This document shows positions 7,438 through 59,812 of a stretch of 64,000 bases of DNA, one piece after another. Every line of letters begins with the position of its first letter. Positions within the stretch are counted from its first letter, which is position 1. The notes under the pieces are model-generated. The model did not search any database and had not been told where the DNA came from. It saw nothing but the letters and a program-made list of their open reading frames with translations. Source of the stretch: Candidatus Dormiibacterota bacterium (GTDB taxonomy: Bacteria; Patescibacteriota; Saccharimonadia; Saccharimonadales; UBA4665). The stretch is taken from the NCBI GenBank assembly GCA_035534895.1, contig DATLRC010000006.1, positions 11,983 to 75,982 on the forward strand, written 5' to 3'. Both the position numbers and the translations under genes were made by a program.

Positions 7438-7866
7438 TCAATAAATTGAGGAACTGCTTGGGTGATGCATTAAGGGTTTTGGTGGAGACTGGGTGATATA
7501 TGGGACGTATGTTGTTGTTTCTGGCGTCACTTTATCTAAGACAATTTGTTGCTCACCAGAGGCACTATTAATAATGGAACTACCGTTTTGATCATTGTCA
7601 GCCGGTTTATTTAACGGTTTGTCCCCTATTGTCAATCCAAAAAGTAGAGGATAGAGTTCAGCGGCTTTTTGGGCGATCATATCACCTTGGCACTCATGGC
7701 CGTCGTAGCAGACTATTTCATCTAATGCCATGTCCCTTACGCGATCGATAGCTGATTGTTGGGTGATTGGTTGGTCACCTTCATAAGATTGATCAGTTGT
7801 TAACTGGCCGTATGATCTGCCAAGATCGTGTTGAGGTCGCCAATTGCGTTCAGGGTTAATAGGCAT
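7438..7866 (-). CDS. Hypothetical protein (142 aa, acidic, Pro/Ser/Gln-rich, C-terminal Tyr)
   Basis: The ORF overlaps the upstream ORF by 11 nt. It has no competing frame and no recognisable motif. Confidence 0.6.
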   Translation of the reverse strand: MPINPERNWRPQHDLGRSYGQLTTDQSYEGDQPITQQSAIDRVRDMALDEIVCYDGHECQGDMIAQKAAELYPLLFGLTIGDKPLNKPADNDQNGSSIINSASGEQQIVLDKVTPETTTYVPYITQSPPKPLMHHPSSSSIY

Positions 7867-8158
7867 CCCAAGACTCCCCCTGGCTTATTGGGTAAAAGCT
7901 ATGACCACCTTCAATCATTTGCTCAGCTTGCTTAAGTGCCAAGTCGGCGATTTTCATTTGCACGTGGCGCGGGACTGAAGTCATGCCGTCTCGACGCAGC
8001 ATTGATGCACTAACCTCAAAGGCTGCTGACTCTAAAGCCATAAGTCTTGACTCGTTCGGTTCTTGATTGCTATCTAGACGCAAGCCCTGTAAATCGAGCA
8101 TTGCTTGGCGCACCCTTGTCATATCGGCCCCTGACTTTTGTCTGGTACTGAATTTCAT
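7856..8158 (-). CDS. Hypothetical protein (100 aa, predicted helical, C-terminal Tyr)
   Basis: Middle ORF of a three-gene same-strand cassette. No recognisable motif. Confidence 0.6.
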   Translation of the reverse strand: MKFSTRQKSGADMTRVRQAMLDLQGLRLDSNQEPNESRLMALESAAFEVSASMLRRDGMTSVPRHVQMKIADLALKQAEQMIEGGHSFYPISQGESWDAY

Positions 8159-8184
8159 TTCCTTGGTTCCTGATAAAATATTTT

Positions 8185-8409
8185 TTAATAATTCTCAGGG
8201 TCACTATTTGAATGTCTGAGGATGCTGGATTCGGGGACCATTCGCCCATCTGTTAAAACTACCATACCGTAACCGGGGACAGTTTCTTTAACTTCAGAGA
8301 CATCATATTGCTCACGATAGGCCGCTTCAGACATAACATTGCGAGCAACCATTAGACTTAAATCACGTTCAGGCATTTTAAAGTTTGGTTTTACTTGTTC
8401 GTGGTTCAT
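8185..8409 (-). CDS. Hypothetical protein (74 aa, C-terminal DPENY)
   Basis: First ORF of the cassette. A GGAG sits 9 nt upstream of the ATG. No recognisable motif. Confidence 0.55.
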   Translation of the reverse strand: MNHEQVKPNFKMPERDLSLMVARNVMSEAAYREQYDVSEVKETVPGYGMVVLTDGRMVPESSILRHSNSDPENY

Positions 8410-9151: not shown

Positions 9152-11503
9152 CTAATGCTTAAGCTGTGTTAGCTTGTACTGGGTGTAGCGTTCAGCTGCT
9201 AGACGATTAAGCTTCGGGTCGTCTGCCTTATTGACGAAGCTCATCGCATCAGCTGTTAGTGGGTGTACGGCAGCCACCTTTTCATGCATCTGTAGTACTA
9301 ATTTGCGGTAGCCGGGGTGCCCTTGGGGACTTGTTCGTATCTCGTGGAGGTGGAAAGCTTGGCGTGCGTTGTAGCTGACCTTCCAGCGCATTTTATGCCC
9401 TAAAAGGGTAGCGTATTGGGCTTCCAGGAGGTATCCGGCTGATTGAAGATGGCTATAAAGTTTAAGGCTTAGATCGAAACAGTGTTCAAATTGTTCGCTC
9501 AATCCGGCTTGGTCAATCAACTCTGGAACTTCAAAGCCAAAGCGCGGTGTCAACTCTTGCCACTCTAAATCCTCAACCATGCGGTGTCGCTGGAGGTCGC
9601 GGAATATGCCGTAATCACAAACAATGTCCCAGCTATAGTGAACTTTTTCGAGGGCTCGACCCGGCTTATGGCGTCTATTTAGACGTTCACCGATGTAGGT
9701 CTTAAAGACACCAACCTTTTTCTCGTAGCTCCAGGCATTAACTTGGTTTTGGATTTGTTTGAGAGACAGCGCGCTATGTTCATAGAGCATGTCTGGAATC
9801 AACTCGAGTTCATTTTTGGGCCAGAAATCAACTAGCTCAACCGGGTCGCTTGTGGGCTGGGCGTGGTTAATGGGCAGTTCCTTTGAAGCCAAATGCTTCA
9901 TGGCTTGTTTGGTGTTAGCGCTGTAGGCGATGGTTGCACCGCCTCGCTCAGGTTTGTCAGCTCTCTCGAGAAAGACAGGGATAATCTTGCGCCCTTCAGT
10001 TAATAATGCTTGTCCAGTCAGTCTGGCCTCTGGTAACTCGTCACTCAAGAGATGCATAATAAGACTTTCAAACGCTTGACCTGATGCAAAGATGCCGACA
10101 GTTGATTTGGTGGCAACTGGTAAGATCGGTCGGGCAGCATCACAAGCTTGGGCTCGGGTAGCTCCCAACCAAGCATTGTCTCGTTCTTTTTCAGGCGTCT
10201 GCGAAGCCAGACGAACATGCTCAGTCAGTCGGTGTACAATCTCAGAATATATCTGGAAGATCTGATCCATGATCTGTTCGTATTGCTGCTTAGTTTTTTC
10301 ATCCAGATACGTTGGCGTGAAGTACTTATATTTTCCATTAGCGTCTGTTTGATCAAAGTAAATATAGCGTGTCGACTGTTCGAGATAGGCTGCTAAGCGT
10401 CCCCATTCTAATTTTTTGGTCAGTAGATTAGAGGCGTTTTCAACCACTACATGTATCCCAGCCAGCTGTTGGACAGAGTCGTCGCCGTATGCCGTGATTA
10501 CCCTCTGCAATAAGTTCTCATCCTTGCCTTGGCTGGATGCGAATTCATCTAGCAGCGTAATTCGCATGTCGTCTCCGCGGCGACTGAGTCGTGCCATAGC
10601 CGCAGCGACGGTCAAGGGGTTTATTTTGTCTGTGAAAGCATAGACATTACCGCTGCTATTAGTGACCACTTGGTCAAGGTATTGCTGGCCGGCGGCGGTG
10701 ATTTGATAATGATTGTCTTTCTTTTCCAGCAAAGGCTGCTGGCTTGGTAACGGCACATCTACATCAGGAGTTGGCTTATTGTTAACTGTTGACACGGTAG
10801 TTGTAATGGACAGTTTTTTGTTTTCTATAATTGATTTTAGTGCTTCCGGCTGAGCAACGGCTGCTTTACTTGGATTTCGAACTGCCAGAGTTTGAGCAAT
10901 TAACTGCCAAATTTGGTCGCTGGCTTTTTCAAGGGACTCGGTTGCAAAGACTACAGGTAAGTTTCGTTGCTTAGCTTCCCAAAGGTAACCGGCTCTTACC
11001 CTCTCTAGAAACTGAACATCTAGATCGTCGAAGCGTTCACCTTGCCCTCGCCCCTGAAGTCGCTCTTTAAGTGTTGTTGCTGGAGCATCTAGGATAATAC
11101 ACAGATCGGGCTCGACACCGTTGACTGCAAAGTCGATAATTCGATTAATCATTTCGTAGTCGGGCACATCGCCGCGTCCATAATACTGTATGGCGAGAGT
11201 AGTCAGATAATTCCGATCCACTAGGCAAATTAAACCCTGTTCGACACTGGTTTTAATGACTTGTAATGATTGGGAGCGGGCAGCGTTATAGAGCAGGACC
11301 TCAGTATTGGTGTTCATTGGGAAATGGGGATCCTGAGTCAGTTGACGAATTGCTCTGGCTGTCAGGTCGCTTTGGCTGTCTGGCTCTCTGAATGAACGAA
11401 CCGGCAGTCCAGCCGCACGAAGGCGGCGGGTCATTTCAAGTAACTGGGTTGTTTTACCAACACCTTCAGGGCCTTCCAGGACAATATATTTGCCTCTACT
11501 CAT
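9152..11503 (-). CDS. tmk-thyX: Fusion protein: thymidylate kinase (N-terminal) plus tandem ThyX-type FAD-dependent thymidylate synthase (C-terminal)
   Basis: The N-terminus, KYIVLEGPEGVGKTTQ...DRNYLTTLAIQY, is typical of Tmk. A Pro-rich linker follows. The roughly 520-aa C-terminal part has two ThyX-like halves, with LEQSTRYIYF in the first and LQRHRM in the second. The ATG overlaps the dcd stop by 8 nt. Confidence 0.8.
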   Translation of the reverse strand: MSRGKYIVLEGPEGVGKTTQLLEMTRRLRAAGLPVRSFREPDSQSDLTARAIRQLTQDPHFPMNTNTEVLLYNAARSQSLQVIKTSVEQGLICLVDRNYLTTLAIQYYGRGDVPDYEMINRIIDFAVNGVEPDLCIILDAPATTLKERLQGRGQGERFDDLDVQFLERVRAGYLWEAKQRNLPVVFATESLEKASDQIWQLIAQTLAVRNPSKAAVAQPEALKSIIENKKLSITTTVSTVNNKPTPDVDVPLPSQQPLLEKKDNHYQITAAGQQYLDQVVTNSSGNVYAFTDKINPLTVAAAMARLSRRGDDMRITLLDEFASSQGKDENLLQRVITAYGDDSVQQLAGIHVVVENASNLLTKKLEWGRLAAYLEQSTRYIYFDQTDANGKYKYFTPTYLDEKTKQQYEQIMDQIFQIYSEIVHRLTEHVRLASQTPEKERDNAWLGATRAQACDAARPILPVATKSTVGIFASGQAFESLIMHLLSDELPEARLTGQALLTEGRKIIPVFLERADKPERGGATIAYSANTKQAMKHLASKELPINHAQPTSDPVELVDFWPKNELELIPDMLYEHSALSLKQIQNQVNAWSYEKKVGVFKTYIGERLNRRHKPGRALEKVHYSWDIVCDYGIFRDLQRHRMVEDLEWQELTPRFGFEVPELIDQAGLSEQFEHCFDLSLKLYSHLQSAGYLLEAQYATLLGHKMRWKVSYNARQAFHLHEIRTSPQGHPGYRKLVLQMHEKVAAVHPLTADAMSFVNKADDPKLNRLAAERYTQYKLTQLKH

Positions 11504-14766: not shown

Positions 14767-15705
14767 CTAAAGAATACTTGCTAAATCAATCTTTATCGAT
14801 GGGCCCATGGTTGTCGTTAAATAAAGGGCCTTGATGTAGGTTCCTTTAACGCTAGCCGGTTTATTTGATCTAATGCTGCTAAGTACTGCTTTAGCATTTT
14901 CAAGCAGTTGTGCGGGACTAAAACTAACTTTGCCAATGGCCAGATGAACAATACCAGTGCTATCAACACGATACTCAACTCGACCACTTTTGGCTTCTTT
15001 TACCGCTCTAGCGACATCTGTTGTAACCGTTCCGCTTTTGGGGTTAGGCATCAGACCTCGAGGTCCGAGTGTGCGTGCGTATTTGCCAAGTTTGGCCATC
15101 AATGCTGGTGTTGCAATTAAGATGTCGAATTCAAGATTGCCTTTCTCCAGTGCTTTCAACACTTCTTCGCTGTTGGAAATATCAGCCCCAGCTGTTTTGG
15201 CCGCTATCGCGTCTTCAGCTTCGGCCATGACAGCTACGCGAACTGTTTTACCGCTGCCTGAGGGTAAGACTAGATTGTCGCGAACGTTTTGGTCAGCCTG
15301 CTTAGGATCTACTGCCAGATTGATATGCATCTCAATCGAAGCATCAAACTTCAGAGTGCTAGTTTTGGGTATAAGTAAACTCGCTTCATCAAGGCTGTAT
15401 AGTTTGTTTGGCTCAATCAAAGACATCGCTTGGCGATAACTTTTACTGCGTCTCTCCAGCTTTGTGTGAGCAACCGTTTTGGCTTTTGGAGGCGTAGGGG
15501 TCACTACTTGTTGTTTGGCCTCAATTTTTTTGTCTTGCTTGGTTTGTTGAACTTCTGCCTCTTGTAGTGCCTTGGGACTTCGCTTGCCCGCCTTAGCAGT
15601 TACTTTTTTAGCTTTTGTCTTGACTTCTTCAGTCTCAGTTTTGACATTTGGCTTGATAACTTTTTTAGTTGTTGCTTTAGTGGTTGCCTTTTTAGCCTGG
15701 GCCAT
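14767..15705 (-). CDS. rplA: 50S ribosomal protein uL1 with an N-terminal Lys/Thr/Ala-rich extension of about 80 aa
   Basis: The core from about residue 85 (YRQAMSLIEPNKLYSLDEA...GPRGLMPNPKSGTVT) is canonical L1. GAAGGAG Shine-Dalgarno upstream. Confidence 0.93.
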   Translation of the reverse strand: MAQAKKATTKATTKKVIKPNVKTETEEVKTKAKKVTAKAGKRSPKALQEAEVQQTKQDKKIEAKQQVVTPTPPKAKTVAHTKLERRSKSYRQAMSLIEPNKLYSLDEASLLIPKTSTLKFDASIEMHINLAVDPKQADQNVRDNLVLPSGSGKTVRVAVMAEAEDAIAAKTAGADISNSEEVLKALEKGNLEFDILIATPALMAKLGKYARTLGPRGLMPNPKSGTVTTDVARAVKEAKSGRVEYRVDSTGIVHLAIGKVSFSPAQLLENAKAVLSSIRSNKPASVKGTYIKALYLTTTMGPSIKIDLASIL

Positions 15706-15761: not shown

Positions 15762-15992
15762 TTAGCTTAATTGTCCGTAATCTTCGGCTGCTTGGGCTGA
15801 ATGTAAAACTTCTGTAAGATCGGGGTTCTGGTTGGTAAGTCCCGTCAGTTCTTGCTCTATATTATCGGCCAGGGGTTGGTTACCGCTGCTCATAGCTTCG
15901 GCATAAAGTTCGACAAGGCCTTTATATCGTTCGTTAAATTCTTGTTGACCGAGCTGACCTTGTTCTGTTGTTGGCAATTCAGGGTTTGTCAT
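15762..15992 (-). CDS. Hypothetical small acidic protein (76 aa) inserted between rplK and rplA
   Basis: The ATG lies 3 nt after the rplK stop and the ORF fills the gap. No recognisable motif. Confidence 0.55.
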   Translation of the reverse strand: MTNPELPTTEQGQLGQQEFNERYKGLVELYAEAMSSGNQPLADNIEQELTGLTNQNPDLTEVLHSAQAAEDYGQLS

Positions 15993-46219: not shown

Positions 46220-46558
46220 TTACATCTTTATTTCGACGTCACAACCGGCAGGAAGCGATAAGTTCATCAACGAGTCTATAGTCTTAGGTGTCGGCTCAAA
46301 AACATCGATTAAGCGTTTATGAACCCTCATCTCGAATTGTTCACGGCCTTTTTTATAGACATGTGGGCTTTTAATCACTGTGAAGGTACTTCTACGAGTT
46401 GGAAGAGGTATCGGACCAGCCAGTGAAGCACCAGTACGAAGAGCAGTGTCAATAATCTGTTTTGCGGCTTGATCAATTACTCGGTGATCATAGGCTTTTA
46501 AGCGAATTCGGATACGCTGTTTGACGTCATCTGCTGTCTTCTTAATTACTTCTGGCAT
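46220..46558 (-). CDS. rpsJ: 30S ribosomal protein uS10
   Basis: [21 protein letters not shown] is canonical S10. Confidence 0.97.
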
Positions 46559-46599: not shown

Positions 46600-46839
46600 T
46601 TAACTACTAAATTGTGGCCTATTTTCGTTATTGGGCGCTTCTTTGGGATCATTTGAAAAAACAACTGTCATTGCATCAATGCGGTCTGTGAAATTCGGTG
46701 AATCAAATGCAGTGTAGACTTCATGATCTTGGTCAACTGTCTCATCAATCTTTGATATCGGGCCCAAGTCGTGGCTACCATGGTCATTGACAGGGCTGAG
46801 CTCTGGATTTTTGGGTCCTGGTTGGTAAATCAATGACAT
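46600..46839 (-). CDS. Hypothetical small acidic protein (79 aa) between tuf and rpsJ
   Basis: The ATG lies 5 nt after the tuf stop, and the ORF fills the gap on the operon strand. No recognisable motif. Confidence 0.55.
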   Translation of the reverse strand: MSLIYQPGPKNPELSPVNDHGSHDLGPISKIDETVDQDHEVYTAFDSPNFTDRIDAMTVVFSNDPKEAPNNENRPQFSS

Positions 46840-46844
46840 CAGTC

Positions 46845-48029
46845 TTATTTCACTATCTTGGTAACAACACCTGCTCCAACGGTTCGGCCGCCTTCACGAA
46901 TTGCAAAACGCAATCCTTGATCCATGGCAATTGGAGCTAACAATTTGACCTTAAAAGTAATTGTGTCGCCTGGCATGACCATTTCTTTATCAGCCGGAAG
47001 TTCGACTTCACCGGTGACGTCAGTCGTTCGGAAATAAAACTGAGGCTTATATCCTTTAAAGAACGGTGTGTGGCGACCGCCCTCTTCCTTAGTTAAGATG
47101 TATACTTCGCTGTCAAATTCAGTATGTGGCGTTATAGTACCTGGTTTTGCTAGTACTTGTCCGCGTTCAATATCGTCGCGTTCAATGCCGCGCAGCAGGA
47201 CACCAACGTTATCACCGGCTTGACCTTGATCAAGATTCTTTTTGAACATTTCAACACCGGTAACTACACTTTTGGTAGTCGGTCGAATACCGACAATTTC
47301 AATTTCTTCATTAACTTTAACAATTCCTGTTTCGACACGTCCGGTAGCTACTGTGCCACGACCCTTGATCGAGAAAACATCTTCAATAGGCATCAGGAAT
47401 GGTTTTTCTAAATCGCGCTTAGGCTCTGGGATGTAATCATCCATGGCTTTAACTAGTTCCATGACAGCATCTTCATTTGTTGCGTCACCTTCAAGGGCCT
47501 TGGTAGCTGAGCCACGAATTATTGGGCAATCACGGTCAAATTCATACTTGGCCAGCAAGTCTCGAATTTCTTCCTCAACTAGATCAACTAGCTCAGGATC
47601 AGCAAGATCCATTTTATTCATGAAAACCAAAATTTTAGGTACACCAACTTGGCGAGCTAGCAAGACATGTTCACGAGTTTGGGGCATCGGACCATCAGCA
47701 GCAGAAACTACTAAAATGGCGCCATCAATCTGGGCTGCTCCGGTAATCATGTTTTTTACATAATCTGCGTGACCAGGCATGTCGACGTGAGCATAGTGCC
47801 GTTTATCAGTTTCGTATTCCTGATGAGAAGTCGCGATGGTGATTCCACGGGCTTTTTCCTCAGGGGCATTATCAATCTGATCATAAGCAACTGGCTTATT
47901 GATGTTGCTAGGTAGTTTTTTTGCAAGAACAGACGTTATAGCAGCTGTTAAGCTGGTTTTACCGTGATCAACGTGTCCCATCGTACCGACGTTAACATGT
48001 GGTTTACTGCGGTCAAAGTTTTCTGCCAT
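46845..48029 (-). CDS. tuf: Elongation factor Tu
   Basis: [22 protein letters not shown] and NKMD GTPase motifs. 394 aa. Confidence 0.98.
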
Positions 48030-48157: not shown

Positions 48158-48421
48158 TTATGTTGAGCTCTGAGTTTGTATGCCGCGAGAGCGATTAGCC
48201 AACTTAGATGCTCGAGTGACTAGAGCGTTCTCGGCCGCGTTGTAGCTATCATGGACTCTGATTGGGTTGGGACTCTCAGCACTAATCTGATTAAACCACT
48301 GCTTGTTATAGTATCTGATTAGTCCAACAAGTGCCTCATCGGGCAAGCAGCTCAGCTCATTACGAAAATGGCCTGCTTCATCTTGAGGTATGTAGTGCTG
48401 GGTTGTTTCGTGGTTAGGCAT
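48158..48421 (-). CDS. Hypothetical small protein (87 aa) between fusA and tuf
   Basis: The ATG lies 11 nt after the fusA stop, and it is the only ORF filling the gap. No recognisable motif. Confidence 0.5.
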   Translation of the reverse strand: MPNHETTQHYIPQDEAGHFRNELSCLPDEALVGLIRYYNKQWFNQISAESPNPIRVHDSYNAAENALVTRASKLANRSRGIQTQSST

Positions 48422-48432
48422 AGTTATATTGT

Positions 48433-50520
48433 CTACTTGCTATTTTTAGCAATTATTGCCTCTGCTACATTATTAGGTACATCGGCATAATGATCAAGTT
48501 CCATACTTGAACTGGCTCGGCCTTGACTCATGCTTCGCAAGTTAGTTGTGTAGCCAAACATTTCACCTAAAGGCACGAAAGCGGTAATTTCTTTAATGCC
48601 TGGATTAAGGTCCTCCATGCTTTCAATGCGACCACGCTTGGAGTTTAGATCACCTATTACATCACCCATAAATCCTTCGGGTGAGATGACAACCACTTTC
48701 ATAACTGGTTCAAGAAGTACCGGGGAAGCCTTCTTGACACCTGCTTGGAGAGCCATTGAGCCGGCAATCTTAAAGGCCATTTCGCTAGAATCAACATCGT
48801 GGTAGGACCCGTCATAGAGCTCAGCTCTGACATCAACCACAGGATAGCCGGCCAATACTCCGTTAGACATTGCTTCTTCAATGCCACTCTTAACGGCAGG
48901 GATATATTCGCCAGGCACAACGCCACCTTTAATGGCATTTATGAATTCAAAGCCTTTACCGACTTCGTTCTGACTTAATCGGAGCCAGACATCGCCATAT
49001 TGGCCACGGCCGCCGGATTGACGGATGAATTTGCCCTGAACTTCAACTCCATCACGCCGGATCGTTTCACGGTAGGCGACTTGAGGTTGGCCAACATTGG
49101 CTTCGACATTAAATTCTCTCTTCATGCGATCAACAATTATTTCAAGATGTAACTCGCCCATTCCCGAAATTATGGTTTGGCCAGTTTCGTCATCAACACG
49201 AATTCTAAAAGTCGGGTCTTCTTCGGCCAGACGTTGCATGGCTAAGCTCATTTTTTCCTGATCGGCTTTAGTTTTTGGTTCAATGGCTATGCTAACTGGC
49301 GGTTCTGGGAAAGTAATGCTTTCTAGAACAATCGGCGAGCTTGGATCAGACAGAGTATGTCCGGTGGTTGTTCCCTTCAGGCCAACTATTGCCGCAATAT
49401 CTCCGGCACCAACTGAACTGACATCTTCGCGCTTATCGGCTTGCATGCGAACAATTCGACCGACCCGCTCTTTTTGGCCTGTCGAGCTATTTAAAATGTA
49501 ACTACCGGCGTCCAGTTTTCCGGAGTAGACTCTAAAATAGGCTAGTTTGCCGACAAACGGATCAGTAGCTATTTTGAATGCTAAGCTGGCAAAGGGCTGA
49601 GATACATCTGGGTGACGCTCAATCTCATCTCCAGTTTTGGGATGTACGCCCCAGGTTGAACCCCTGTCAAGAGGGCTAGGCAATAGATCGATCACGGCAT
49701 CGAGCACCTTTTCAACTATAACGCCACGTCCGTCACCGCCGCTAACAGCAAAGAATTTACCAGTTAAGACTGCTGTCCTGATAGCTTGATTAATTTCCTC
49801 CGTAGTCAAGCCTTCCTCGCCAACTTCAAGGTATTTCTCGAGCATCGCCTCATCTTCAGCAACTGCGTTTTCAACTAGCAAAGAACGGTATTTAGAGACT
49901 TTATCCATCATCTCGGCCGGGATTTCAGATTCAACTAGTTGATGATCAGTAAACTCTTTATAGCTATAAGCTTTCAAAGTAACCAGGTCGACGATGCCAT
50001 TAATCGACTGTTCAAAACCAATTGGCAAGTGAATCGGAAAAGCCCGTTTACTTAAGCGATGGTGTATTGAGTCTAGGGACTTATAGAAATCCCCGCCGGT
50101 CTGGTTGATCTTATTAATGAAACAGATACGTGGCACACCGTACTTGTCTGCTTGTCGCCAGACAGTTTCAGATTGAGATTCAACGCCCATTTTGCCGTCA
50201 AAGACTACTACTGCCCCATCTAAAACTCTTAAAGACCGCTCCACTTCGACAGTGAAGTCAATGTGTCCCGGAGTATCAATAATATTGATCTGATGATTTT
50301 TCCAATAGCAGGTCACAGCAGCCGAGACAATAGTGATGCCCCGTTCTCTTTCTTGGTCCATCCAGTCAGTTGTTGTTTGTCCTTCATGAACTGCCCCAAT
50401 TTTGTGCTTTAGACCTGTTCGGTAGAGGATACCTTCTGTAGTTGTCGTTTTGCCGGCATCAATGTGAGCAATAATACCGATGTTACGAATTTTTTCCATT
50501 GCTGTTTGCTTATCTGCCAT
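48433..50520 (-). CDS. fusA: Elongation factor G
   Basis: I set the start at the ATG at 50520 ([26 protein letters not shown]), which has AAAGGA 7 nt upstream. The ORF track extends 12 codons further. Confidence 0.97.
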
Positions 50521-50533
50521 TTTGAATCCTTTA

Positions 50534-50722
50534 TTAGCCTGTTGAGGTGTCGTCATTATATTGGTTTGGGTCTTGAGCCAGTTGATCTATTAGAAAGTCT
50601 AGGTTAAATCGGCGCAGAGGCCCTGATTTCTGGCGCTCTGCTTCAAGTGCATCGTAAGCTGTTAGCTCAACAATTGATTGAGGGCTTATTTGTGTTTCAT
50701 GAGCAGCTCGTTTCGGTTTCAT
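50534..50722 (-). CDS. Hypothetical small acidic protein (62 aa) upstream of fusA
   Basis: The ATG overlaps the stop of the preceding ORF (ATGA). Its 3' end carries the fusA Shine-Dalgarno. Confidence 0.5.
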
Positions 50723-51183
50723 CAGTTCAACCTCGTAGCCGTGTTGACTGTTTCAAAGATAGCTTGAGCGGCGAGTAAATCAAGAAGTTTTAGCTGTTGG
50801 TCTGACAATTGATTGTAGTTTCGCTCACCTTGAGGAAATATTGATGTCACGTCTTTATTAACTCTGGTCATCTGGACCATTGATCGACGACTAGTCTTGG
50901 TCGGTAATAAAACACTACTGTAGGTGCTTCCGTCTTTTCGATCAAAGACCAGTAGCTGTAACAATTGACCGTCAGGTACTCGACTAAAAGGACCGCTGAC
51001 TGATTTCTCGACTTCATAGCCAGCTCTTATGCGAACGTTTTGATTGTTTTCAGTAGGCTCCTCTGGAATATAAACATATCTTTGATTTGGGCCAACCCAA
51101 GTTGGACTATTGCCAATGTCAACCCGAGCAAGTTGTTGTTGGACATCTTCAATCGAACGGACAGGAACTGTGAACAAACCCAT
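50722..51183 (-). CDS. Hypothetical protein (153 aa) downstream of rpsG
   Basis: I chose the ATG at 51183 (MGLFTVPV), 1 nt after the rpsG stop. The longer ORF-track start would overlap rpsG by 101 nt. Confidence 0.6.
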   Translation of the reverse strand: MGLFTVPVRSIEDVQQQLARVDIGNSPTWVGPNQRYVYIPEEPTENNQNVRIRAGYEVEKSVSGPFSRVPDGQLLQLLVFDRKDGSTYSSVLLPTKTSRRSMVQMTRVNKDVTSIFPQGERNYNQLSDQQLKLLDLLAAQAIFETVNTATRLN

Positions 51184-51184
51184 A

Positions 51185-51664
51185 TTAACCTCTTGCAAAG
51201 TGGGCAAAAGCCCGGTTAGCTTCGGCCATTTTGTGGGCGTCTTCACGTTTTTTAACAGCAGTTCCTTGGTTGTTATAGGCATCAATCAGTTCGGTAGCAA
51301 TGCGATCGACCATGCTCATACCCCTTCGAGAACGGGCAGATTGGACAAACCACATGGTGGTCAGGTGATTTTGGCGTTGGCCTCTCACTTCAAAGGGTAT
51401 CTGGTAATTTGCTCCGCCAACACGTCGAGACCGGGTTTCCATGTGAGGTTGAATGTTGTTCATTGCCTTCTCGAAAACTTCAAGGGGGTTCTGGATTTTG
51501 AGCTTATCAGCCGCTTTTTGCATGCCGTTATAAACAAGTTTTTCAGCCAGTTGTTTTTTGCCATTGCGCATAACTCTGTTAATCAGGCGAGAAACTTGAA
51601 CATTCTGATAAAGGCGGTCTGGTTTTATGTCTCGAACTAGTGCTTTTGTGACTTTTCGGGGCAT
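51185..51664 (-). CDS. rpsG: 30S ribosomal protein uS7
   Basis: MPRKVTKALVRDIKPD...NAFAHFARG is canonical S7. Confidence 0.97.
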   Translation of the reverse strand: MPRKVTKALVRDIKPDRLYQNVQVSRLINRVMRNGKKQLAEKLVYNGMQKAADKLKIQNPLEVFEKAMNNIQPHMETRSRRVGGANYQIPFEVRGQRQNHLTTMWFVQSARSRRGMSMVDRIATELIDAYNNQGTAVKKREDAHKMAEANRAFAHFARG

Positions 51665-51894
51665 TAGATCACTCCTTTCAGGATTGGCTCAGGTGGTGGT
51701 AGGCTGAGGCAAGCACTTTGGCCCAAGGCTACGGTTATATCCCATGGACAGCTTGTTTTGTTTGCAGCTTCTGGATCTTCTTGAACGTAAACCTCAAGCC
51801 ACTCCTGGCATTGCTCAGGGGTTAACGGATAACCATTCTGACGGTTGGAGTCGCAATCTTGTCGGCTAGCGCAATAAGAGATACCTTTAGCCAT
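51664..51894 (-). CDS. Hypothetical small acidic protein (76 aa, 5 Cys) between rpsL and rpsG
   Basis: The ATG directly abuts the rpsL TAA, and its own TAA overlaps the rpsG ATG (TAATG). No recognisable motif. Confidence 0.55.
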   Translation of the reverse strand: MAKGISYCASRQDCDSNRQNGYPLTPEQCQEWLEVYVQEDPEAANKTSCPWDITVALGQSACLSLPPPEPILKGVI

Positions 51895-52308
51895 TTACTT
51901 TGTCTCTTTCTTGGTGCCGTATTTAGAACGGCCATTAGTGCGGTTAGTGACACCTTGAAGATCAAGACTACCGCGAACAATATGATAGCGAACGCCTGGC
52001 AGGTCTTTGACTCGACCTCCACGAACAAGAACCACTGCGTGTTCTTGAAGATTATGCCCTTCGCCACCAATATATGCCCAGACTTCATAGCCATTAGTCA
52101 ATCGTACGCGAGCCACTTTACGTAAGGCCGAGTTTGGTTTTTTAGGTGTCTTGGTGGTCACTTTGACGCAAACTCCGCGCTTAAATGGACCGGCCTTTTC
52201 GTAGTTCCTGGTCTTTAGGTTATTAGTTACGCGTTGAAGAGCTGGCGACTTTGTTTTGGTCGTCTGCTTGACTCTGGGCTTACGGATTAATTGGTTAATA
52301 GTTGGCAT
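51895..52308 (-). CDS. rpsL: 30S ribosomal protein uS12
   Basis: [12 protein letters not shown]...[16 protein letters not shown] is canonical S12. GAAGGAG Shine-Dalgarno. Confidence 0.98.
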
Positions 52309-52431: not shown

Positions 52432-55400
52432 TTAATCATCACTTTCAATTGTTTGTTCGGCCTCGGCCTTGTAACCCGTGCCAACTGGTATCTTACGACC
52501 AAGTATAACGTTCTCCTTGAGGCCAAACAGACGATCTATCTTGCCGCTTGTTGCGGCGCTAATTAGAACGCGAGTCGTGTCCTGGAAAGAGGCAGCACTT
52601 AAGAATGAGTCGGTGCTTAGCGAAGCTTTTGTTATGCCCAGTAATAATTGGTTGCATTTGGCAGGTTGTTTTCCCGAGGCAACTAGTAGCTCATTGGCCT
52701 CGGCGACAGCTAGTTTGCTGACAACGTCTCCAGTTACAAAATCACTATCTCCGGCTTCTTCTATTTGAACCCGTGAAAACATTTGACGAACGATTATCTC
52801 TAGGTGTTTGTCGGCTATGTTTTGGCCTTGAGCTACAAATATCTTCAGGATTTCGTTCATGATGTAGCGCTGAGTAGCTTCAACACCTTGTAAGCGCATC
52901 AAGTCTTGTAAATTGATGGAACCATTAGTCAATCGTTGTCCAGCAATAACCCGGTCTCCGTCTTTAACTACCAAGTGTTTAAAGCCTGGTATTTCGTAAC
53001 GCATAACACTTTGTTTGGTTGGTGTAATAACAGCCCCTTTACTGGTCAGCTCTAGTCGTCCGGACATTGGGGCAACCAAAGGCTCTGAGCCATCTTCTAG
53101 AGCAGCAATGACGTCACCGACCATGACGTCTGAGCCACTTGCAATTTGTGCCTTGCGTTCACCGAGACTAAGTTTAATTGTCTCCTTAGTGTCAGCTGTG
53201 ACTTGAACGATATAGTGGTCGCCCTCTTCCCAAGCGTTGACCAGACCAACAATATCACTATGATAAGCTTGGCCTTTAGGGGTGCGGACTTCAAACAATT
53301 CTTCAACACGATTCAGTCCCTGTGAGGTGTCATCAGCAATTACAGCACCCGAACGGTGCTTTGAGTCAAGAGAAAGTTGGGTACCGGGTTCACCAATACT
53401 CTGAGCGGCAATAACGCCGATAGGATGATGGTCAACAACCTTTTCGCCAGTCGCTGGGTCAAGACCGTAAGATTTCTGAGCTACACCTCGAACTGAAGTT
53501 GAACTTAGGGCGCTCATGATTCTAACTCCGTCAACTGATGTGTCAGAATCTATTTTCTCGGCAATTTCGTGAGTTATAATTTGTCCCTTTTTCGAATAAG
53601 TCGGGATGTTAACAGCCGTATAGCGTCCTTCTAGACGTGATCCATAGGAAACTCCTATTTCTTCAGCGTCTGCTCGGAGCATTGCGAATCCCGGATCGGT
53701 AGACGTGCTGTCGTCCTCAAGAGTGAAGACATCTTGGGCAACATCGACTAGGCGACGTGTTAGATAACCGGCATCAGCTGTCTTGAGAGCAATGTCTATC
53801 AGCGCTTTGCGTGTTCCACGTGTGCCAGTAAAGTATTCTAGGGGGTCAAGTCCATGGATGTATCCAGATTTGATGGGTAGCTCAATGGCGTTGCCGGCCG
53901 CATCTGAGAAAACGCCAAGCATGCCAACACACATTTTTAGTTGTGATATGTTACCTCGGGCTCCGGAGGTAATAGCAATGGCCATAGATGAATCTTGATC
54001 AACCATCTGACTAGCCAATAAGTCTAGAACTTGAGTTTCAATTTTAGTCCAGTTTTCGACAGTTAGGCGATAGCGTTCTTCTTCGGTAATGAAACCTTGC
54101 TCATACTGGCTGGAAATAGCCGCACTGCGAGTTTCTCCTTCATCAACTAGTGGCTCCATCCCCTCAATAGATGAAAAGTCACCCATGCCCATCGACAACC
54201 CAGATTGAGTGGCATAGTCAAAGCCAAGGTCTTTAAGATTATCGGCGATCAAAGCTGTTTGGTCTTGTCCGTAACGGGCATAGACGTCGGCCATGACTTT
54301 TTGGAGACGTTTTTTGGTCATTGTCTCGTCGTGGAATGGGAAATCTTCGGGAAAAGTTTCATTGAACAGAAAGCGACCTAGTGTTGTTTGGCGTATCTCA
54401 TTTCGGAAAGGTAGGCGAACGCTTGATTGGAGCTTGATGTGTCCAGCATCCAGGGCCATTATTGCTTCAGATAGGTCAGCGTAAGCTCTAACTTTCTTTT
54501 GGCTGACACCAGGACGATCGTATGTCAAGTAGTAACAACCTAGAACAATGTCTTGCTCAATATGGAGTATTGGTGAGCCGTCTGCTGGTTTTAGGAGGTT
54601 GTGATTAGCGGCCATAATCTCGCGGGCCTCATTTTGAGCATCATCCGATAGCGGCAGATGAACGGCCATTTGGTCACCATCAAAGTCAGCATTAAAGCCT
54701 TTACAAACTAGGGGATGAAGTTGGATGGCCCGTCCTTCGATTAAAACTGGTTGAAAAGCTTGGATACTTAAGCGGTGCAACGATGGGGCACGGTTAAGCA
54801 AGACATACTTGCCCTTGATAACCTCATCAAGTGCGTCCCAGACAACTGTTTCTCCAAGTTCGATCAAACGACCAGCACTACGGATATTGTGCGCGTGCTC
54901 CTCTGCAATTAACTCACCAATAACGAAAGGCTTGAAAAGTTCCAGAGCCATCATTTTAGGCAAACCACATTGATGAATTTTTAGTTCAGGTCCAGCCACA
55001 ATAACAGACCGACCAGAATAATCAACTCGCTTACCAAGAAGATTCTGGCGAAAACGACCTTGTTTTCCTTTCAACATATCGCTTAAGGACTTCAGTCGGC
55101 GGCGTTGGCCAGTGGCTGCAACTGCCCGTCCACTGCGAGCATTATTGTTATCGATCAGAGCATCGACTGCTTCTTGTAGCATTCGTTGTTCATTGCGACG
55201 AATTACTTCAGGAGCATTTAGTTCGATTAATTTTTTTAGTCGGTTGTTGCGATTGATGACTCGGCGGTAAAGGTCATTAAGGTCACTGGTTGCAAAACGT
55301 CCACCAGTTAGCTGGACCATTGGCCGAAGATCAGGGGGGATTACCGGCAAGACACTTACGCAGGTGCTACTTGGGCGAATACCGGCTCGATCCATGCTTT

Positions 55401-56250
55401 CCAAAAGTCTCAAGCGCTTCATGATTCGCTTCCGGCGTTGACCTTTTGCTTCCTCGGCTTCTGTAGTCAATGATTTAATTAATTGCTTTAGGTCAATGCC
55501 GTCTAATAGATCCTTGAGAGCAGCACTTCCCATGCCGACACTAATTAATCCGCGAACCTCGTCTGGCAAACTTCGATATTCAGTTTCACTGATCAGATTC
55601 AGCTTTTCAAGGGCTTTGAGTTGATCACGGAGCACTTCAAAGTCTTTGCTAACTTCTTCTGTCTCGTGGCTTTGCATTTCGGCAAGAGCCTTTAGATTGG
55701 CCTTGTCCTTAGCTGCCTCAGCTTCGTAACGGAGCTTGATAGCTTCCTTAGCAGCGGCAAACTCTGCTTCTTTATCTGCTAGAAGTTTCTCTTTTTTGGC
55801 GTTATCAACGTTCTTGATGATGTAGCTGGCAAAATAAGCCACCCGTTCCAAGTTTTTGACTGTCATACCAAGAAGCAAGCCCATGGCACTTGGTGTACCA
55901 CGCAAGAACCAAATATGGGCAACCGGTACAGCTAGACTGATATGGCCCATTCGTTCCCTTCGGACAATACTTCGTGTAACAAGTTCACCGTTTTTATCAA
56001 CTGCTGCTTCGCGTGAGCGAACTCCCTTATATTTAGCGTCATGAGGATTGATGTCTTTGACTGGGCCGAAGATTCGTTCACAAAATAAGCCATCACGTTC
56101 AGGCTTTTGAGTTCGGTAATTTATTGTTTCTGGTTTAGTCACTTCGCCGTAGCTCCAGTCGAGAATATCTTCTGGGCTGGCAACAGCCAATCGTACAGCA
56201 TCAAAATCAGCAATATCTGTTCCTTGTGTTGAATAACGTGAAGGTGTCAT
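52432..56250 (-). CDS. rpoC: DNA-directed RNA polymerase subunit beta'
   Basis: [12 protein letters not shown] catalytic motif. I set the start at the ATG at 56250, 1 nt after the rpoB stop. The ORF track extends 11 codons into rpoB. Confidence 0.97.
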
Positions 56251-56251
56251 T

Positions 56252-59200
56252 TTATGCTGCCTCCTCTTCCTTAATTTGATCATCAGCGGCTGTTACTAGA
56301 GCACTATTGTCATCAGTTAGATTAAGATCATCGTCCAGAGACATAATCGTGAACTCATCAGCTACGGCTTCTTCTGTTACATCAACTTCGGAGGCCGAGG
56401 CTTGAGGTACTTCAACGGCCACTGGATGAGTCGCTTCTTCATGGATGTTGGTAGCCAAAACGTTCTCTGCATCAATCACTTTGTTGGATTGGACAAGGTC
56501 AACTTTAAGGCACAAGCCCTGAAGTTCTTTAACTAGAACATTGAAGCTTTCAGGGACTTTAGGACCAACAATTTCGGTACGTTTGATAATTGATTCGTAG
56601 GCCTTACTGCGACCGTAGACATCATCGGACTTGATGGTCAGCATTTCTTGCAGGGTGCTAGCAGCACCGTAAGCTTCTAGTGCCCAGACCTCCATCTCAC
56701 CGAAACGTTGGCCTCCATTTTGGGCTTTACCGCCCAGTGGTTGTTGAGTGACCATGGTGTAGGGGCCTGTCGAGCGAGCGTGTATTTTGTCGGCTACCAT
56801 ATGGTTTAGCTTGATCATATACATACTTCCGACTGTCGTCCGCTCCATAAAGGCATCGCCATTACGCCCATCATAAAGTTGTTGCTTACCGTCTTCTGGC
56901 AGGCCGGCTTCCTTAAGTAATTGACGAATTTTTGCCTCTGGCACGCCATTGAATGACGGGCTGGCAACCTGCATACCAAGAGCTCGAGCAGCCATTCCAA
57001 GGTGAGTTTCAAATAATTGGCCAATGTTCATTCGTGAAGGAACGCCTAAGGGATTCAAGATAATGTCAACTGGCGTACCGTCAGCCATAAACGGCATATC
57101 TTCAACGGCTAGTATCCGCGCTATGACACCCTTATTTCCATGTCGTCCACCTAGTTTATCGCCAACAGCAATCTTACGCATTTGGGCCACAAAAACCTGG
57201 ATTTGCATTAGTACGCCCGCTTTAAGTTCATGACCATTTTCTCGGCTAAAGACTTTTACGCCTACCACTTTACCGTGTTTACCGTTACTCATACGCTGTG
57301 AGGTGTCTCTGACTTCTTTGGCCTTTTCACCAAATATGGCTCTCAGCAAGCGTTCTTCGCTGGAAAGCTCTTGTTCTCCCTTTGGAGTAATTTTTCCGAC
57401 AAGAATGTCTCCGGGGTGAACTTCGGCACCAATCCGCACAATGCCGTCCTCATCTAGATGTCTAAGTGTTTCTTCTGAAACATTAGGTATGTCACTGGTT
57501 ACAATTTCTGGCCCCAGTTTTGTTTCTCGAACCTCGATCATGAAGTCAACAATATGAACACTGGTCAAGGTGTCGTCTTCAACCAGTTTGCGCGAAATAA
57601 TGATAGCGTCTTCAAAGTTATAGCCGGCCCATGGCATAAAAGCGACAATTAGATCCTTACCCAGAGCTAGCTCGCCGCCCGAGATAGACATTCCTTCGAT
57701 CAATACATCGCCAGCTTTGACTTTATCCCCTGTGTTAACGACCACTTTTTGATTGATTCCGGTACCTTCGTTGCTGCGTACAAAATGCTGTGGTTGATAA
57801 CTGGCCTTAGAATCTTTATAGAGGACAATGACTTCTTGGGCTGATGCCTTAAGCACTTCGCCTGGCCCTTCGGCCAATATAACCTGACCAGTGTTACGCG
57901 CAGCAACTGACTCTAGGCCGGTACCAACGATTGGTGCCGACGGTTGAATCAAGGGAACTGCCTGGCGTTGCTGGTTACTGCCCATTAGTGAACGGTAAAC
58001 GTAATTTTTCTCTATAAAAGGGATCAGTCCGGCGGAAGAACCAATAATCTGGTTGCGTGCTGCATCCATATAGGTCACGTCATTGGCATCAACTTCGCCG
58101 GTTTTTAATTTGAAGCGAGCGCTGACACGTTCGTTGATAAAGTAACCGTTTTCATCAAGCTGGTTACCACCACCGGCGATGACTGCTGACTCTTCTTCAT
58201 AGGCGTCAAGGTAAACTATATCAGCTGTTACCTTTGACTTTACGGGCCAAGTTACCTGTGAGCTGACTCGAGCTAGTTTTTGAGCATCGGCCGAGCTTAT
58301 TTTCTTGCCTGCACCGACAATAACTTTACCTTTTTCGTCTTCTAGGTCTACAGCTGCTATGTATCCGGTTGATTCCTTTGCAGTTACGGCATTAATAACC
58401 TTACGGTATGGTGTTTCAATAAAACCGTAATCATTAACTCTGGCATAATTTGCAAGATTTAGAACTAGGCCAATATTGGCTCCTTCTGGGGTTTCAACTG
58501 CACATATCCGTCCGTAGTGGGTGGCATGGGCATCGCGGACTTCAAAACCGGCACGTTCTCTAGACAGACCACCAGGCCCCATTGAACTTAAACGACGCTT
58601 GTGAGCCAGCTCACTGAGTGGGTTAATCTGGTCCATGAATTGTGATAACTGAGAACTGGCAAAGAATTCACGAACAGCAGCAACGATGGGACGGGCATTA
58701 ATTAACTGACCCGGTTGGACAGTCTCTATTTCAGACATTGACATCCGGTCTTTGGTATTGCGCTCCATACGTAGCAGCCCGATTCGAAATTGACGCTGTA
58801 CTAGTTCACCAACTAATTTGACTCTTCGGTTAGCCAGAGAATCAATGTCATCAGCTGGTTCTTGGGTGTTATTAAGGCGAATTATTTCGGCGATAATAGC
58901 TTCTAGATCTTCTAGTCTAAGAACTCTGTTTTCGATAGTGTTAGCTACATCGAGATCTAGTCGTTTGTTAATTTTGTAACGTCCGACACGACTGAAATCG
59001 AAGCGTTTATAGTTATAGAACATATTTTCGATAAGTGATCGAGCATTGTCAACCGTTGCCAGGTCACCAGGGCGCAAACGACGATATACCTCAATAAGTG
59101 CTTCATTTTGACCTCGACTTGGGTCTTTTAGTAGTGTCGCATCCAAGTAATTAAGCTTACCGCTGTCGACATGCTTGAATGCCTCGCGCATCCCAGTTTC

Positions 59201-59812
59201 GGTTACCCCTAGGGCCCTGAGTAGAGTGGTTACGGCAATTTTTCGCTTTCGATCAATTTTAACGTACAGCGCACCATTGGCTGCAGTATCGAATTCCAAC
59301 CAGGCACCACGACCAGGAATAACTTTGGCACCATAGAGATAGGTTGAGCCATGCTGCTCGGAGGTAAAAAAGACACCAGCAGAGCGTATGAGCTGAGAAA
59401 CAACCACCCGTTCAGCACCATTTATTACGAAAGTACCTCGGCTGGTCATATATGGATAGTCGCCAAGATAGATCTCTTGCTCTTTAATCTCACCAGTAAC
59501 CTTATTAATTAGTTCAACATTTGCTTTAAGGGGTGCTTCGTAGGAAACATTGTTTTCACGAGCCTGATGTTCGCTAAGTTTGGGACTTTCAAAGTGATAA
59601 TCTTTAAAGTTAAGTGATAACTTTGCGCCGGTATAATCGTCAATCGGGCTAATTTCAGCCAATAGTTCGCCCAGGCCCTCTTCAATAAACCATTGAAAAG
59701 ATTTGTTCTGATGATCAACTAGACTCGGCAGATCTAGAACGCTGTCATCGGCTGTAAAAAAAACACGTTGAGATTTGTTAGTGGTATTCGTCTTCGTCAT
59801 ATGGACTATCAA
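56252..59812 (-). CDS. rpoB: DNA-directed RNA polymerase subunit beta (acidic C-terminal tail)
   Basis: Canonical beta-subunit motifs (GRHGNKGVI, NGGQRFGEMEVWALEAYGA). The start is ambiguous between the TTG at 59812 and the ATG at 59800. Confidence 0.96.
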   Translation of the reverse strand: MIVHMTKTNTTNKSQRVFFTADDSVLDLPSLVDHQNKSFQWFIEEGLGELLAEISPIDDYTGAKLSLNFKDYHFESPKLSEHQARENNVSYEAPLKANVELINKVTGEIKEQEIYLGDYPYMTSRGTFVINGAERVVVSQLIRSAGVFFTSEQHGSTYLYGAKVIPGRGAWLEFDTAANGALYVKIDRKRKIAVTTLLRALGVTETGMREAFKHVDSGKLNYLDATLLKDPSRGQNEALIEVYRRLRPGDLATVDNARSLIENMFYNYKRFDFSRVGRYKINKRLDLDVANTIENRVLRLEDLEAIIAEIIRLNNTQEPADDIDSLANRRVKLVGELVQRQFRIGLLRMERNTKDRMSMSEIETVQPGQLINARPIVAAVREFFASSQLSQFMDQINPLSELAHKRRLSSMGPGGLSRERAGFEVRDAHATHYGRICAVETPEGANIGLVLNLANYARVNDYGFIETPYRKVINAVTAKESTGYIAAVDLEDEKGKVIVGAGKKISSADAQKLARVSSQVTWPVKSKVTADIVYLDAYEEESAVIAGGGNQLDENGYFINERVSARFKLKTGEVDANDVTYMDAARNQIIGSSAGLIPFIEKNYVYRSLMGSNQQRQAVPLIQPSAPIVGTGLESVAARNTGQVILAEGPGEVLKASAQEVIVLYKDSKASYQPQHFVRSNEGTGINQKVVVNTGDKVKAGDVLIEGMSISGGELALGKDLIVAFMPWAGYNFEDAIIISRKLVEDDTLTSVHIVDFMIEVRETKLGPEIVTSDIPNVSEETLRHLDEDGIVRIGAEVHPGDILVGKITPKGEQELSSEERLLRAIFGEKAKEVRDTSQRMSNGKHGKVVGVKVFSRENGHELKAGVLMQIQVFVAQMRKIAVGDKLGGRHGNKGVIARILAVEDMPFMADGTPVDIILNPLGVPSRMNIGQLFETHLGMAARALGMQVASPSFNGVPEAKIRQLLKEAGLPEDGKQQLYDGRNGDAFMERTTVGSMYMIKLNHMVADKIHARSTGPYTMVTQQPLGGKAQNGGQRFGEMEVWALEAYGAASTLQEMLTIKSDDVYGRSKAYESIIKRTEIVGPKVPESFNVLVKELQGLCLKVDLVQSNKVIDAENVLATNIHEEATHPVAVEVPQASASEVDVTEEAVADEFTIMSLDDDLNLTDDNSALVTAADDQIKEEEAA

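Follow-up and report, generated by a model that had tools for sequence, protein, structure and literature searches.

A 76-codon reading frame fitted exactly between rpsL and rpsG suggests an exchangeable small-gene slot in the str operon of Saccharimonadales

Few gene strings in bacteria are as conserved and as tightly coupled as the rpsL-rpsG-fusA-tuf cluster, which is usually treated as invariant. Why, then, does an additional open reading frame (ORF) fill the entire junction between rpsL and rpsG in the 64,000-nucleotide stretch of contig DATLRC010000006.1 analyzed here (the window)? An earlier note, made from the sequence alone, had drawn attention to this 76-codon frame, referred to as ORF76, and its description of the locus holds. 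The ATG of ORF76 directly abuts the rpsL stop codon (TAAATG), and the ORF76 stop codon in turn overlaps the start of rpsG (TAATG). The product is as quoted in the note: 76 residues, acidic, with 10 Asp/Glu against 5 Lys/Arg and five Cys. Its net charge is -5 and its pI is 4.32, and its tryptic peptides include GISYCASR and QNGYPLTPEQCQEWLEVYVQEDPEAANK. The ORF76 DNA is identical in two independent assemblies, one from JGI and one from Logan, and is thus not an assembly artefact. The wider pattern described in the note is also real. ORFs are found at the rpsG/fusA, fusA/tuf, tuf/rpsJ and rplK/rplA junctions, 0-11 nt past the preceding stop codon or overlapping it. Our analysis of ORF76 and of the same junctions in related genomes points, on balance, to a real, translationally coupled accessory mini-protein, possibly metal-binding, that occupies an exchangeable cassette slot. 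Its exact fill would be imposed by selection for coupling.

The comparison set consists of the 80 best genomic relatives of the window S7 protein, out of more than 560 rpsG loci; individual relatives are labelled L001 and so on. All 80 are metagenome-assembled genomes (MAGs) of Saccharimonadales or Saccharibacteria, with S7 identities of 79-86%. The source MAG is named ‘Candidatus Dormibacteraeota bacterium’ by NCBI (locus tag VNE40_01595). Because all 80 best S7 relatives are Saccharimonadales, this label is probably wrong. The window comes from a Saccharimonadales (TM7) genome. Junction spacings were counted over 79 related species. Open-frame statistics were collected over 21 loci with spacers of 150-400 nt, comprising 20 relatives and the window. 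An alternative genetic code was dropped, as the neighboring genes all translate cleanly under table 11.

The spacing between rpsL and rpsG has a bimodal distribution: 56 species have -1 to 11 nt, usually with the two genes in a TAATG overlap, and 23 have 106-585 nt. An insert, defined as a spacer of at least 100 nt, is thus present in about 30% of the species, and about 70% are without any insert. Nearly every long-spacer locus contains a single ORF of 56-115 amino acids that extends all the way from the rpsL stop codon to the start of rpsG. This ORF usually begins in a TAATG overlap, and its end overlaps rpsG by 1-11 nt. ORF76 has the layout of the class, being a sense ORF that fills the whole spacer between the two genes. 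The earlier note had proposed looking for an ORF at the same junction in relatives. Similarly placed ORFs are indeed found, in nearly all of the 23 long-spacer species among the 79, but in close relatives the frame is absent or non-homologous.

The fit of these ORFs to their spacers is not expected by chance. In each of the 21 loci, a single frame of the sense strand stays open along 97-100% of the spacer, whereas shuffled sequences give about 6% per locus. The per-locus shuffle P values are 0.005-0.15 and their product is ~1e-29. By codon usage, the open frame also outscores the other five in 19 of the 21 loci, the window among them. We compared the median ORF coverage of several junctions. 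It is 1.0 at rpsL-rpsG, 0.98 at rpsG-fusA, 0.75 at fusA-tuf and 0.60 at tuf-rpsJ, and it is 0 at rpoC-rpsL, which served as the non-coding control. The fusA-tuf and tuf-rpsJ junctions probably have their own promoters, for tuf and rpsJ respectively. In TM7x, the tuf and rpsJ promoter regions served as predicted strong promoters driving reporter genes (PMC10633639). The gradient of coverage over the junctions indicates that selection keeps inserts translated where the cistrons are coupled.

Judged in isolation, the coding status of ORF76 is suggestive but unproven. A fully open frame is seen in 6.9% of mononucleotide shuffles of its 230-nt spacer, which is unremarkable when taken alone, and the ORF76 frame is the best of six under a codon model trained on the str locus. 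Set against non-coding sequence, a comparison raised in the earlier note, the codon statistics of ORF76 are borderline on their own. The evidence from the class as a whole indicates that ORF76 is most likely coding despite this.

The charge of the products is specific to the open frame. The in-frame junction products have a mean net charge of -5.4 per 76 amino acids and 20 of 22 are acidic, whereas the other five frames of the same DNA have a mean of +7.2, with 1 of 110 acidic. The charge of the ORF76 frame compares to +1 to +10 in its other frames. The median pI of the class is 4.56, 22 of 25 members are acidic, and ORF76 is within the class range of lengths.

The Cys residues also follow a pattern. 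Their counts are bimodal, either 0-2 or 4-5, and 13 of 23 ORFs contain four or five. An N-terminal C-x4-5-C pair followed by at least two later Cys is present in 11 of 23 ORFs, and the C-P dipeptide is enriched (16 observed, 3.5 expected); both values are above all 5000 shuffles (P<2e-4). ORF76 and 12 other junction ORFs have a four-Cys pattern that begins with C-x4-6-C near the N-terminus, continues with a mid-helix Cys and ends in C-P with a hydrophobic residue after it. ORF76 fits this pattern through C8, C14, C29 and C49-P-W (P=0.0012 for a random ORF, P=0.0098 for its own composition). Because its four Cys match the arrangement in the class, the ORF76 product would probably fold around a metal ion, as zinc or an Fe-S cluster.

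Within the class, the TLCER..C ... CPF subfamily is the one recognizable by sequence. Searching 1.84 billion representatives with a profile added P0007, which is located between rpsL and rpsG, along with one repeat-protein false positive. A metagenome scan added one further member of the subfamily, likewise between rpsL and rpsG. The proportions of nonsynonymous (pN) and synonymous (pS) differences were compared in pairs of alleles. For L040 and L088, pN is 0.28 and pS is 0.73, and for L056 and L085 the values are 0.35 and 0.74. The pS of ~0.73 is saturated, and pN exceeds the S7 value of these pairs only ~2.5-3-fold. Two fusA-tuf junction ORFs common to L038 and L040 have a ratio of nonsynonymous to synonymous substitution rates (dN/dS) of ~0.09. 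The comparison of alleles indicates purifying selection on the TLCER subfamily. Together with the dN/dS of ~0.09, the low pN in the subfamily indicates that at least part of the class are constrained protein genes. The purifying selection for which the earlier note had proposed to look is thus apparent in the TLCER subfamily pairs. As for ORF76 itself, an exact look-up of the window S12 and S7 proteins, aimed at strains for dN/dS, returned the same strain only, with identical ORF76.

The distribution of the insert points to cassette replacement. The insert is scattered over the tree, with at least 18 state changes for 21 carriers. L043 is without the insert and L065 contains it, and their rpsL and rpsG are 92.8% identical. 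L038 and L040 share ~90% identity along the locus and 99-100% in the S12 and S7 proteins, but the value is down to ~0.43 exactly across the junction ORF. The allele of L040 is more similar to those of the more distant species L056, L085 and L088, with 46-57% identity. The presence of unrelated or absent alleles in sister genomes that are ~90% identical argues for a cassette slot within the str operon that is exchanged by recombination. A similar event may have occurred at the next junction. A 105-residue rpsG-fusA ORF is common to L038 (L038:5724-6041) and L040 (L040:6482-6799), and its dS is 0.095 as compared to ~0.65 in the flanking genes, which suggests that this cassette was recently exchanged. 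Saccharibacteria are naturally competent and recombine via homology arms of ~1 kb (PMC10633639). Homologous recombination in the conserved flanks is a plausible route of cassette replacement.

We found no mobile-element ends at the slot. The search for mobile-element ends in or around the insert gave one imperfect 11-nt inverted repeat only, and no direct repeats. A transposable element or integron cassette was rejected, as there are no terminal inverted repeats, target-site duplication, attC or adjacent integrase, and the neighbors are rpsL and rpsG. Sequence repeats are present in one relative. The rpsL-rpsG ORF of L065 (L065:5169-5384) contains an internal repeat, GVDVEQPYA and CVDIENPYA, and its 3' end repeats AAGGAGAGC of the rpsL 3' end. 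In the window the rpsL 3' end is AAGAAAGAGACAAAGTAA, a degenerate version of AAGAAGGAGAGCAAGTAA found in relatives.

How would such an insert be expressed? Strong Shine-Dalgarno (SD) sequences are retained by rpsL, rpsG, fusA, tuf, rpsJ, rplK, rplA and rplJ. That of ORF76 is weak, with an SD-like AAGAGA upstream, and those of o62, o87 and o79, orphan ORFs at the following junctions, are weak or absent. We propose that ORF76 is transcribed as part of the str-operon mRNA and that ribosomes ending rpsL reinitiate at the abutting ATG. With its weak SD, ORF76 would be initiated mainly by these rpsL-terminating ribosomes, and its output would probably be below that of S12 and S7. An output below that of the neighbors speaks against strict stoichiometry, and the claim of stoichiometrically linked products is not supported by the contrast between the SDs of the junction ORFs and those of the canonical genes. 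Translation of ORF76 would proceed to the TAATG, and rpsG would then start from its own strong AAAGGAG. The position of this SD within the final codons of ORF76 accounts for a near-invariant Gly close to the C-terminus of the class.

The exact fill would then be what selection permits, in that an insert must be an uninterrupted sense ORF. The likely reason is that such an insert preserves the translational linkage of rpsL, rpsG and fusA and leaves no stretch of the mRNA untranslated; the regularity itself is class-wide. The sporadic, swappable distribution of ORF76 argues for an accessory factor that would use the operon to be expressed constitutively at a high level, and ORF76 does not look like a ribosome constituent. 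Part of the earlier interpretation survives here: coupled translation is very probable, neighboring junctions are built in the same way, and a dedicated ribosomal factor is not what the data favor.

The searches with ORF76 gave no family to which it could be assigned. It has no match in Pfam, NCBIfam, PHROGs, PADLOC or PDB sequences. The sole items from these searches are a sub-threshold similarity to the MCM OB zinc finger (E ~0.01-0.2) and two sub-threshold matches of P0002 to PADLOC Cas7 (E 0.011 and 0.025). A profile built from 13 four-Cys members recovered its own inputs only. A phage or defence protein was rejected on the basis of no PHROGs or PADLOC profile hits and none in phage genomes.

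A number of observations weigh against a metal-binding accessory protein encoded by a member of a class. A word-indexed search of 5.8 billion protein clusters with ORF76 returned ORF76 alone, and the profile search of the 1.84 billion representatives gave no homologue of it. Nothing was found by tblastn and blastn against the 80 related loci at E<=1 to 10. No relative of ORF76 was recovered from JGI metagenome contigs scanned with a chimera of ORF76 and o153, the orphan ORF that follows rpsG, or from viral contigs and GenBank phages. The pairwise global scores of ORF76 with other four-Cys members are inside the shuffled null. Its hhalign probability with the TLCER subfamily is 0.2%, with 10 columns aligned around CP[FW]. 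The membership of ORF76 in the class is based on position, size, charge and Cys spacing, and we do not claim a homologous family. The codon-usage score of ORF76 is -0.06; 98% of windows from real genes score higher, and the value falls in the top 5% for wrong-frame ORFs. The ranges of the four-Cys motif were chosen after the members were seen, and the in-frame Cys content (3.7%) is the same as that of the other frames, which bears on the predicted metal site. AlphaFold models of ORF76 and the TLCER subfamily have low confidence (pLDDT 49 and 52), which further weakens the metal-binding prediction. Foldseek returned no PDB hit for the models with E below 0.3, and no fold is assignable to ORF76 from the two methods. 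In addition, the acidity of the junction ORFs could be selected merely to render a by-product peptide harmless.

The last point belongs to a competing explanation, which we regard as unlikely but as the main rival. An insertion between tightly coupled cistrons may be kept open and translated, with a peptide that is harmless and functionless. Coupling does matter at this site, as indicated by the rpsL/rpsG TAATG overlap in the short state, and the exact fill is strongest at rpsL-rpsG and rpsG-fusA and weaker at the two junctions with presumed promoters of their own. The junction sequences are nearly all orphans: 555 of 628 candidates are singletons by BLAST, and about 85 of the 94 better-scoring junction ORFs contain no Pfam domain. 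A weak codon score, such as that of ORF76, would also fit a peptide of no function, and acidity would hold an abundant peptide off ribosomes and RNA. However, where homologues exist, pN is 2-3 times below pS and ~2.5-3 times the S7 value, a constraint too strong for a peptide with no function. Members that cannot otherwise be aligned have the four-Cys spacing and the C-P motif in common, and rpsG, with its own strong SD, may need no relay of ribosomes from upstream. It is very improbable that the frame is open by chance within a non-coding spacer or a regulatory RNA, such as an S7 autoregulatory site of the kind located between rpsL and rpsG in E. coli. The shuffling frequency of this particular spacer, the borderline codon statistics and the lack of a homologue are what such a frame would produce, but the sense frame is open in every comparable locus and scores best in nearly all of them, the start and stop are exactly on the neighboring stop and start, and the charge is strongly frame-specific. 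No Rfam match at E<=1 was found for the ORF76 region, its folding shows no excess structure (minimum free energy z-score 0.48), and promoter and terminator scans of the spacer gave signals at chance level. The Rfam result, the z-score and the open sense frame led us to reject an S7-binding regulatory or leader RNA. A leader peptide or attenuator upstream ORF was rejected as well, as ORF76 is 76 codons long and the spacer has no terminator-like site and no excess structure.

The earlier note proposed a lineage-specific ribosome- or translation-associated factor made in step with its neighbors. A dedicated factor of this kind could be, for example, a stand-in for a missing small zinc ribosomal protein or a chaperone of S12 and S7, both of which are very basic. 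We consider this improbable. Such a factor is hard to reconcile with an insert that is missing from ~70% of related species, scattered where present, and replaced by unrelated alleles between sister genomes. The str-operon position, the similar ORFs beside fusA, tuf, rplK and rplA, and an acidic product beside very basic partners would all suit it, and Saccharibacteria have neither bL9 nor uL30 and usually no bL32 (PMC9297842). Yet the SD of ORF76 is weak, and S12 or S7 residues do not co-vary with the presence of the insert: the best of 101 tests has p=0.0019, and none survives correction. A zinc-ribbon ribosomal protein (bL32, bL33, bL36 or uS14) was rejected, as ORF76 has no ribosomal protein hit in Pfam or NCBIfam at E<=1 and no CxxC knuckles, and is acidic instead of basic. 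Replacement of bL32 was rejected because of the wrong Cys spacing, the wrong charge and the sporadic distribution. A further, quite improbable possibility is that small acidic proteins, many with four Cys and possibly metal-binding, form a hypervariable pool that Saccharimonadales maintain and exchange horizontally. They would be encoded as coupled cistrons beside S12, S7, EF-G, EF-Tu and L11 and would act directly on these neighbors. ORF76 would then be an allele of an arms-race locus. If true, such proteins might shield or tune translation against aminoglycosides, elfamycins, fusidane-like compounds and thiopeptides of host Actinobacteria, or alternatively take part in some other epibiont-host or phage conflict. 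Taken together, we favor a coupled accessory mini-protein in an exchangeable slot.

The neighbors of ORF76 and the other junction ORFs of the window are listed in Table 1. Codon usage is clearly gene-like for o153, o62 and o79 and borderline for o87. No relative of o153, o62, o87 or o79 was found in the 80 related loci, and o153 has no family match. The fusA start is ambiguous (window 50520-50556, minus strand). The longest ORF is 707 amino acids and has a 23-nt overlap with o62; public gene calls place a 695-residue start at 50520, with its own SD and 13 nt past the o62 stop.

Table 1. Positions in the window of ORF76, its sequence elements, the str-operon genes and other junction ORFs
Feature	Coordinates	Strand	Remarks
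ORF76	51664..51894	minus	76-codon ORF with ATG start, 231 nt; sits between rpsL and rpsG
TAAATG junction	51892..51897	minus	ORF76 start directly abuts rpsL stop; putative termination-reinitiation site
TAATG junction	51662..51666	minus	rpsG start overlapped by ORF76 stop
Cys codon span of ORF76	51709..51873	minus	C8 51871-51873; C14 51853-51855; C29 51808-51810
Cys codons of ORF76, continued		minus	C49 then Pro 51748-51750; extra C62 51709-51711
rpsG Shine-Dalgarno AAAGGAG	51672..51678	minus	Within ORF76 codons 72-74 (K-G-V)
rpoB	56252-59812	minus	
rpoC	52432-56283	minus	
rpsL (ribosomal protein S12), 137 aa	51895..52308	minus	Upstream cistron; PF00164 on identical product
rpsG (ribosomal protein S7), 159 aa	51185..51664	minus	Downstream cistron; PF00177 on identical product
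o153, orphan ORF	50722..51183	minus	Starts 1 nt past rpsG stop; gene-like codon score
o62, orphan ORF	50534..50722	minus	TGATG overlap with o153 stop; ends 13 nt before fusA start 50520
fusA	48433-50520	minus	
o87, orphan ORF	48158..48421	minus	11 nt past fusA stop
tuf	46845-48029	minus	
o79, acidic orphan ORF	46600..46839	minus	5 nt past tuf stop
rpsJ	46220-46558	minus	
Second 76-aa acidic orphan ORF, pI 4.05, no Cys	15762..15992	minus	3 nt past rplK stop, 56 nt before rplA

Additional features were observed at other ribosomal protein genes and elsewhere on the minus strand of the window. Directly upstream of rplJ-rplL (window 7438-8409), there are orphan ORFs of 142, 100 and 74 amino acids, none with a Pfam match. 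The 100-residue ORF overlaps the 142-residue ORF, and the 74-residue ORF is ~26 nt upstream of the 100-residue ORF. A single ORF of 783 amino acids (window 9152-11503) is a fusion of an N-terminal thymidylate kinase (PF02223) with a ThyX thymidylate synthase (PF02511). The rplA gene (window 14767-15705) encodes an N-terminal extension of ~110 amino acids, rich in Lys and Ala, ahead of the L1 domain. This extension is specific to the Candidate Phyla Radiation (CPR) (PMC9297842).

Junctions of the relatives contain other kinds of ORFs. The fusA-tuf junction of four relatives (including L001:8988-9290) holds a chorismate mutase type II gene (PF01817), and a DnaJ-domain ORF and a sugar transferase were found in junctions of others. 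At the rpsG-fusA junction of relatives from L002 to L078, 20 of 63 ORFs of 45-130 amino acids contain at least four Cys (for example L006:6545-6916, L043:8295-8621 and L059:6481-6792). Many of these have an N-terminal CxxCP and two C-terminal Cys, and they may constitute a second four-Cys class.

We found no earlier description of str-operon insertions or of Cys-rich small proteins in Saccharibacteria or CPR in the literature searched. Accessory small-gene hotspots and coupled small ORFs are already known as kinds of things; to specialists, a slot for swapping genes within the str operon would come as a surprise. For one order of Patescibacteria, this cluster would serve as a slot for swappable orphan mini-genes under exact-fill coupling, and the slot offers a natural experiment on the strength of the translational-coupling constraint in operon evolution. 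The small orphan ORFs of CPR genomes are often dismissed or uncalled, and our analysis suggests that they can be under purifying selection. It also sets apart a new class of mini-proteins that are acidic, often contain four Cys and have no known relatives; their placement suggests high constitutive expression. ORF76 is thereby moved from an unanchored orphan to a member of a recognizable class, to whose other members it is not demonstrably homologous. Saccharibacteria are now genetically tractable, and the role of the junction proteins is directly testable.

Several known systems are similar to the slot and its ORFs in part. In Bacillus subtilis, YbxF/RplGB is encoded in the str cluster upstream of rpsL; it belongs to the L7Ae family, a conserved family that is broadly kept in its lineage. 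Like ORF76, it is an extra small protein gene in the rpoC-rpsL-rpsG-fusA-tuf cluster. Unlike it, ORF76 is an orphan with no L7Ae domain. The zinc-binding ribosomal proteins with four Cys (bL32, bL33, bL36 and the C+ forms of uS14) are small and their genes are located among translation genes, similar to ORF76. In contrast to these basic proteins with two CxxC knuckles, ORF76 is acidic, does not contain the knuckles, and is sporadic and hypervariable. Actinobacteria are the usual hosts of Saccharibacteria, and WhiB-like small Fe-S proteins occur in Actinobacteria and their phages. These are small acidic four-Cys proteins, as is ORF76. We rejected a WhiB-like protein, as the Wbl spacing C-x(n)-C-x2-C-x5-C is absent from ORF76 and there is no Pfam hit.

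Closer parallels are found in the str operon of E. coli and in accessory-gene hotspots. The rpsL-rpsG spacer of E. coli is ~100 nt and is a non-coding structured RNA bound by S7, which mediates S7 autoregulation and coupling to fusA. The junction is at the same place in the same mRNA, and expression of rpsG and fusA depends on it. The TAATG overlap in the short-state relatives is classic coupling. In the window, however, the spacer is a 231-nt ORF that is predicted to be translated, without excess structure or an Rfam match. Accessory-gene hotspots include flexible islets flanked by core genes and phage ‘moron’-style cassettes. The rpsL-rpsG slot resembles them in its presence/absence polymorphism, in the unrelated and mostly orphan small genes that occupy a fixed site, in the conflict of the allele phylogeny with the flanks, and in the known genes, such as chorismate mutase, in neighboring junctions. 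It differs in that integrase, attC-like sites and flanking direct or inverted repeats are absent. It also differs in its location inside a highly conserved, translationally coupled operon, where the cassettes fit as exact-fill sense ORFs.

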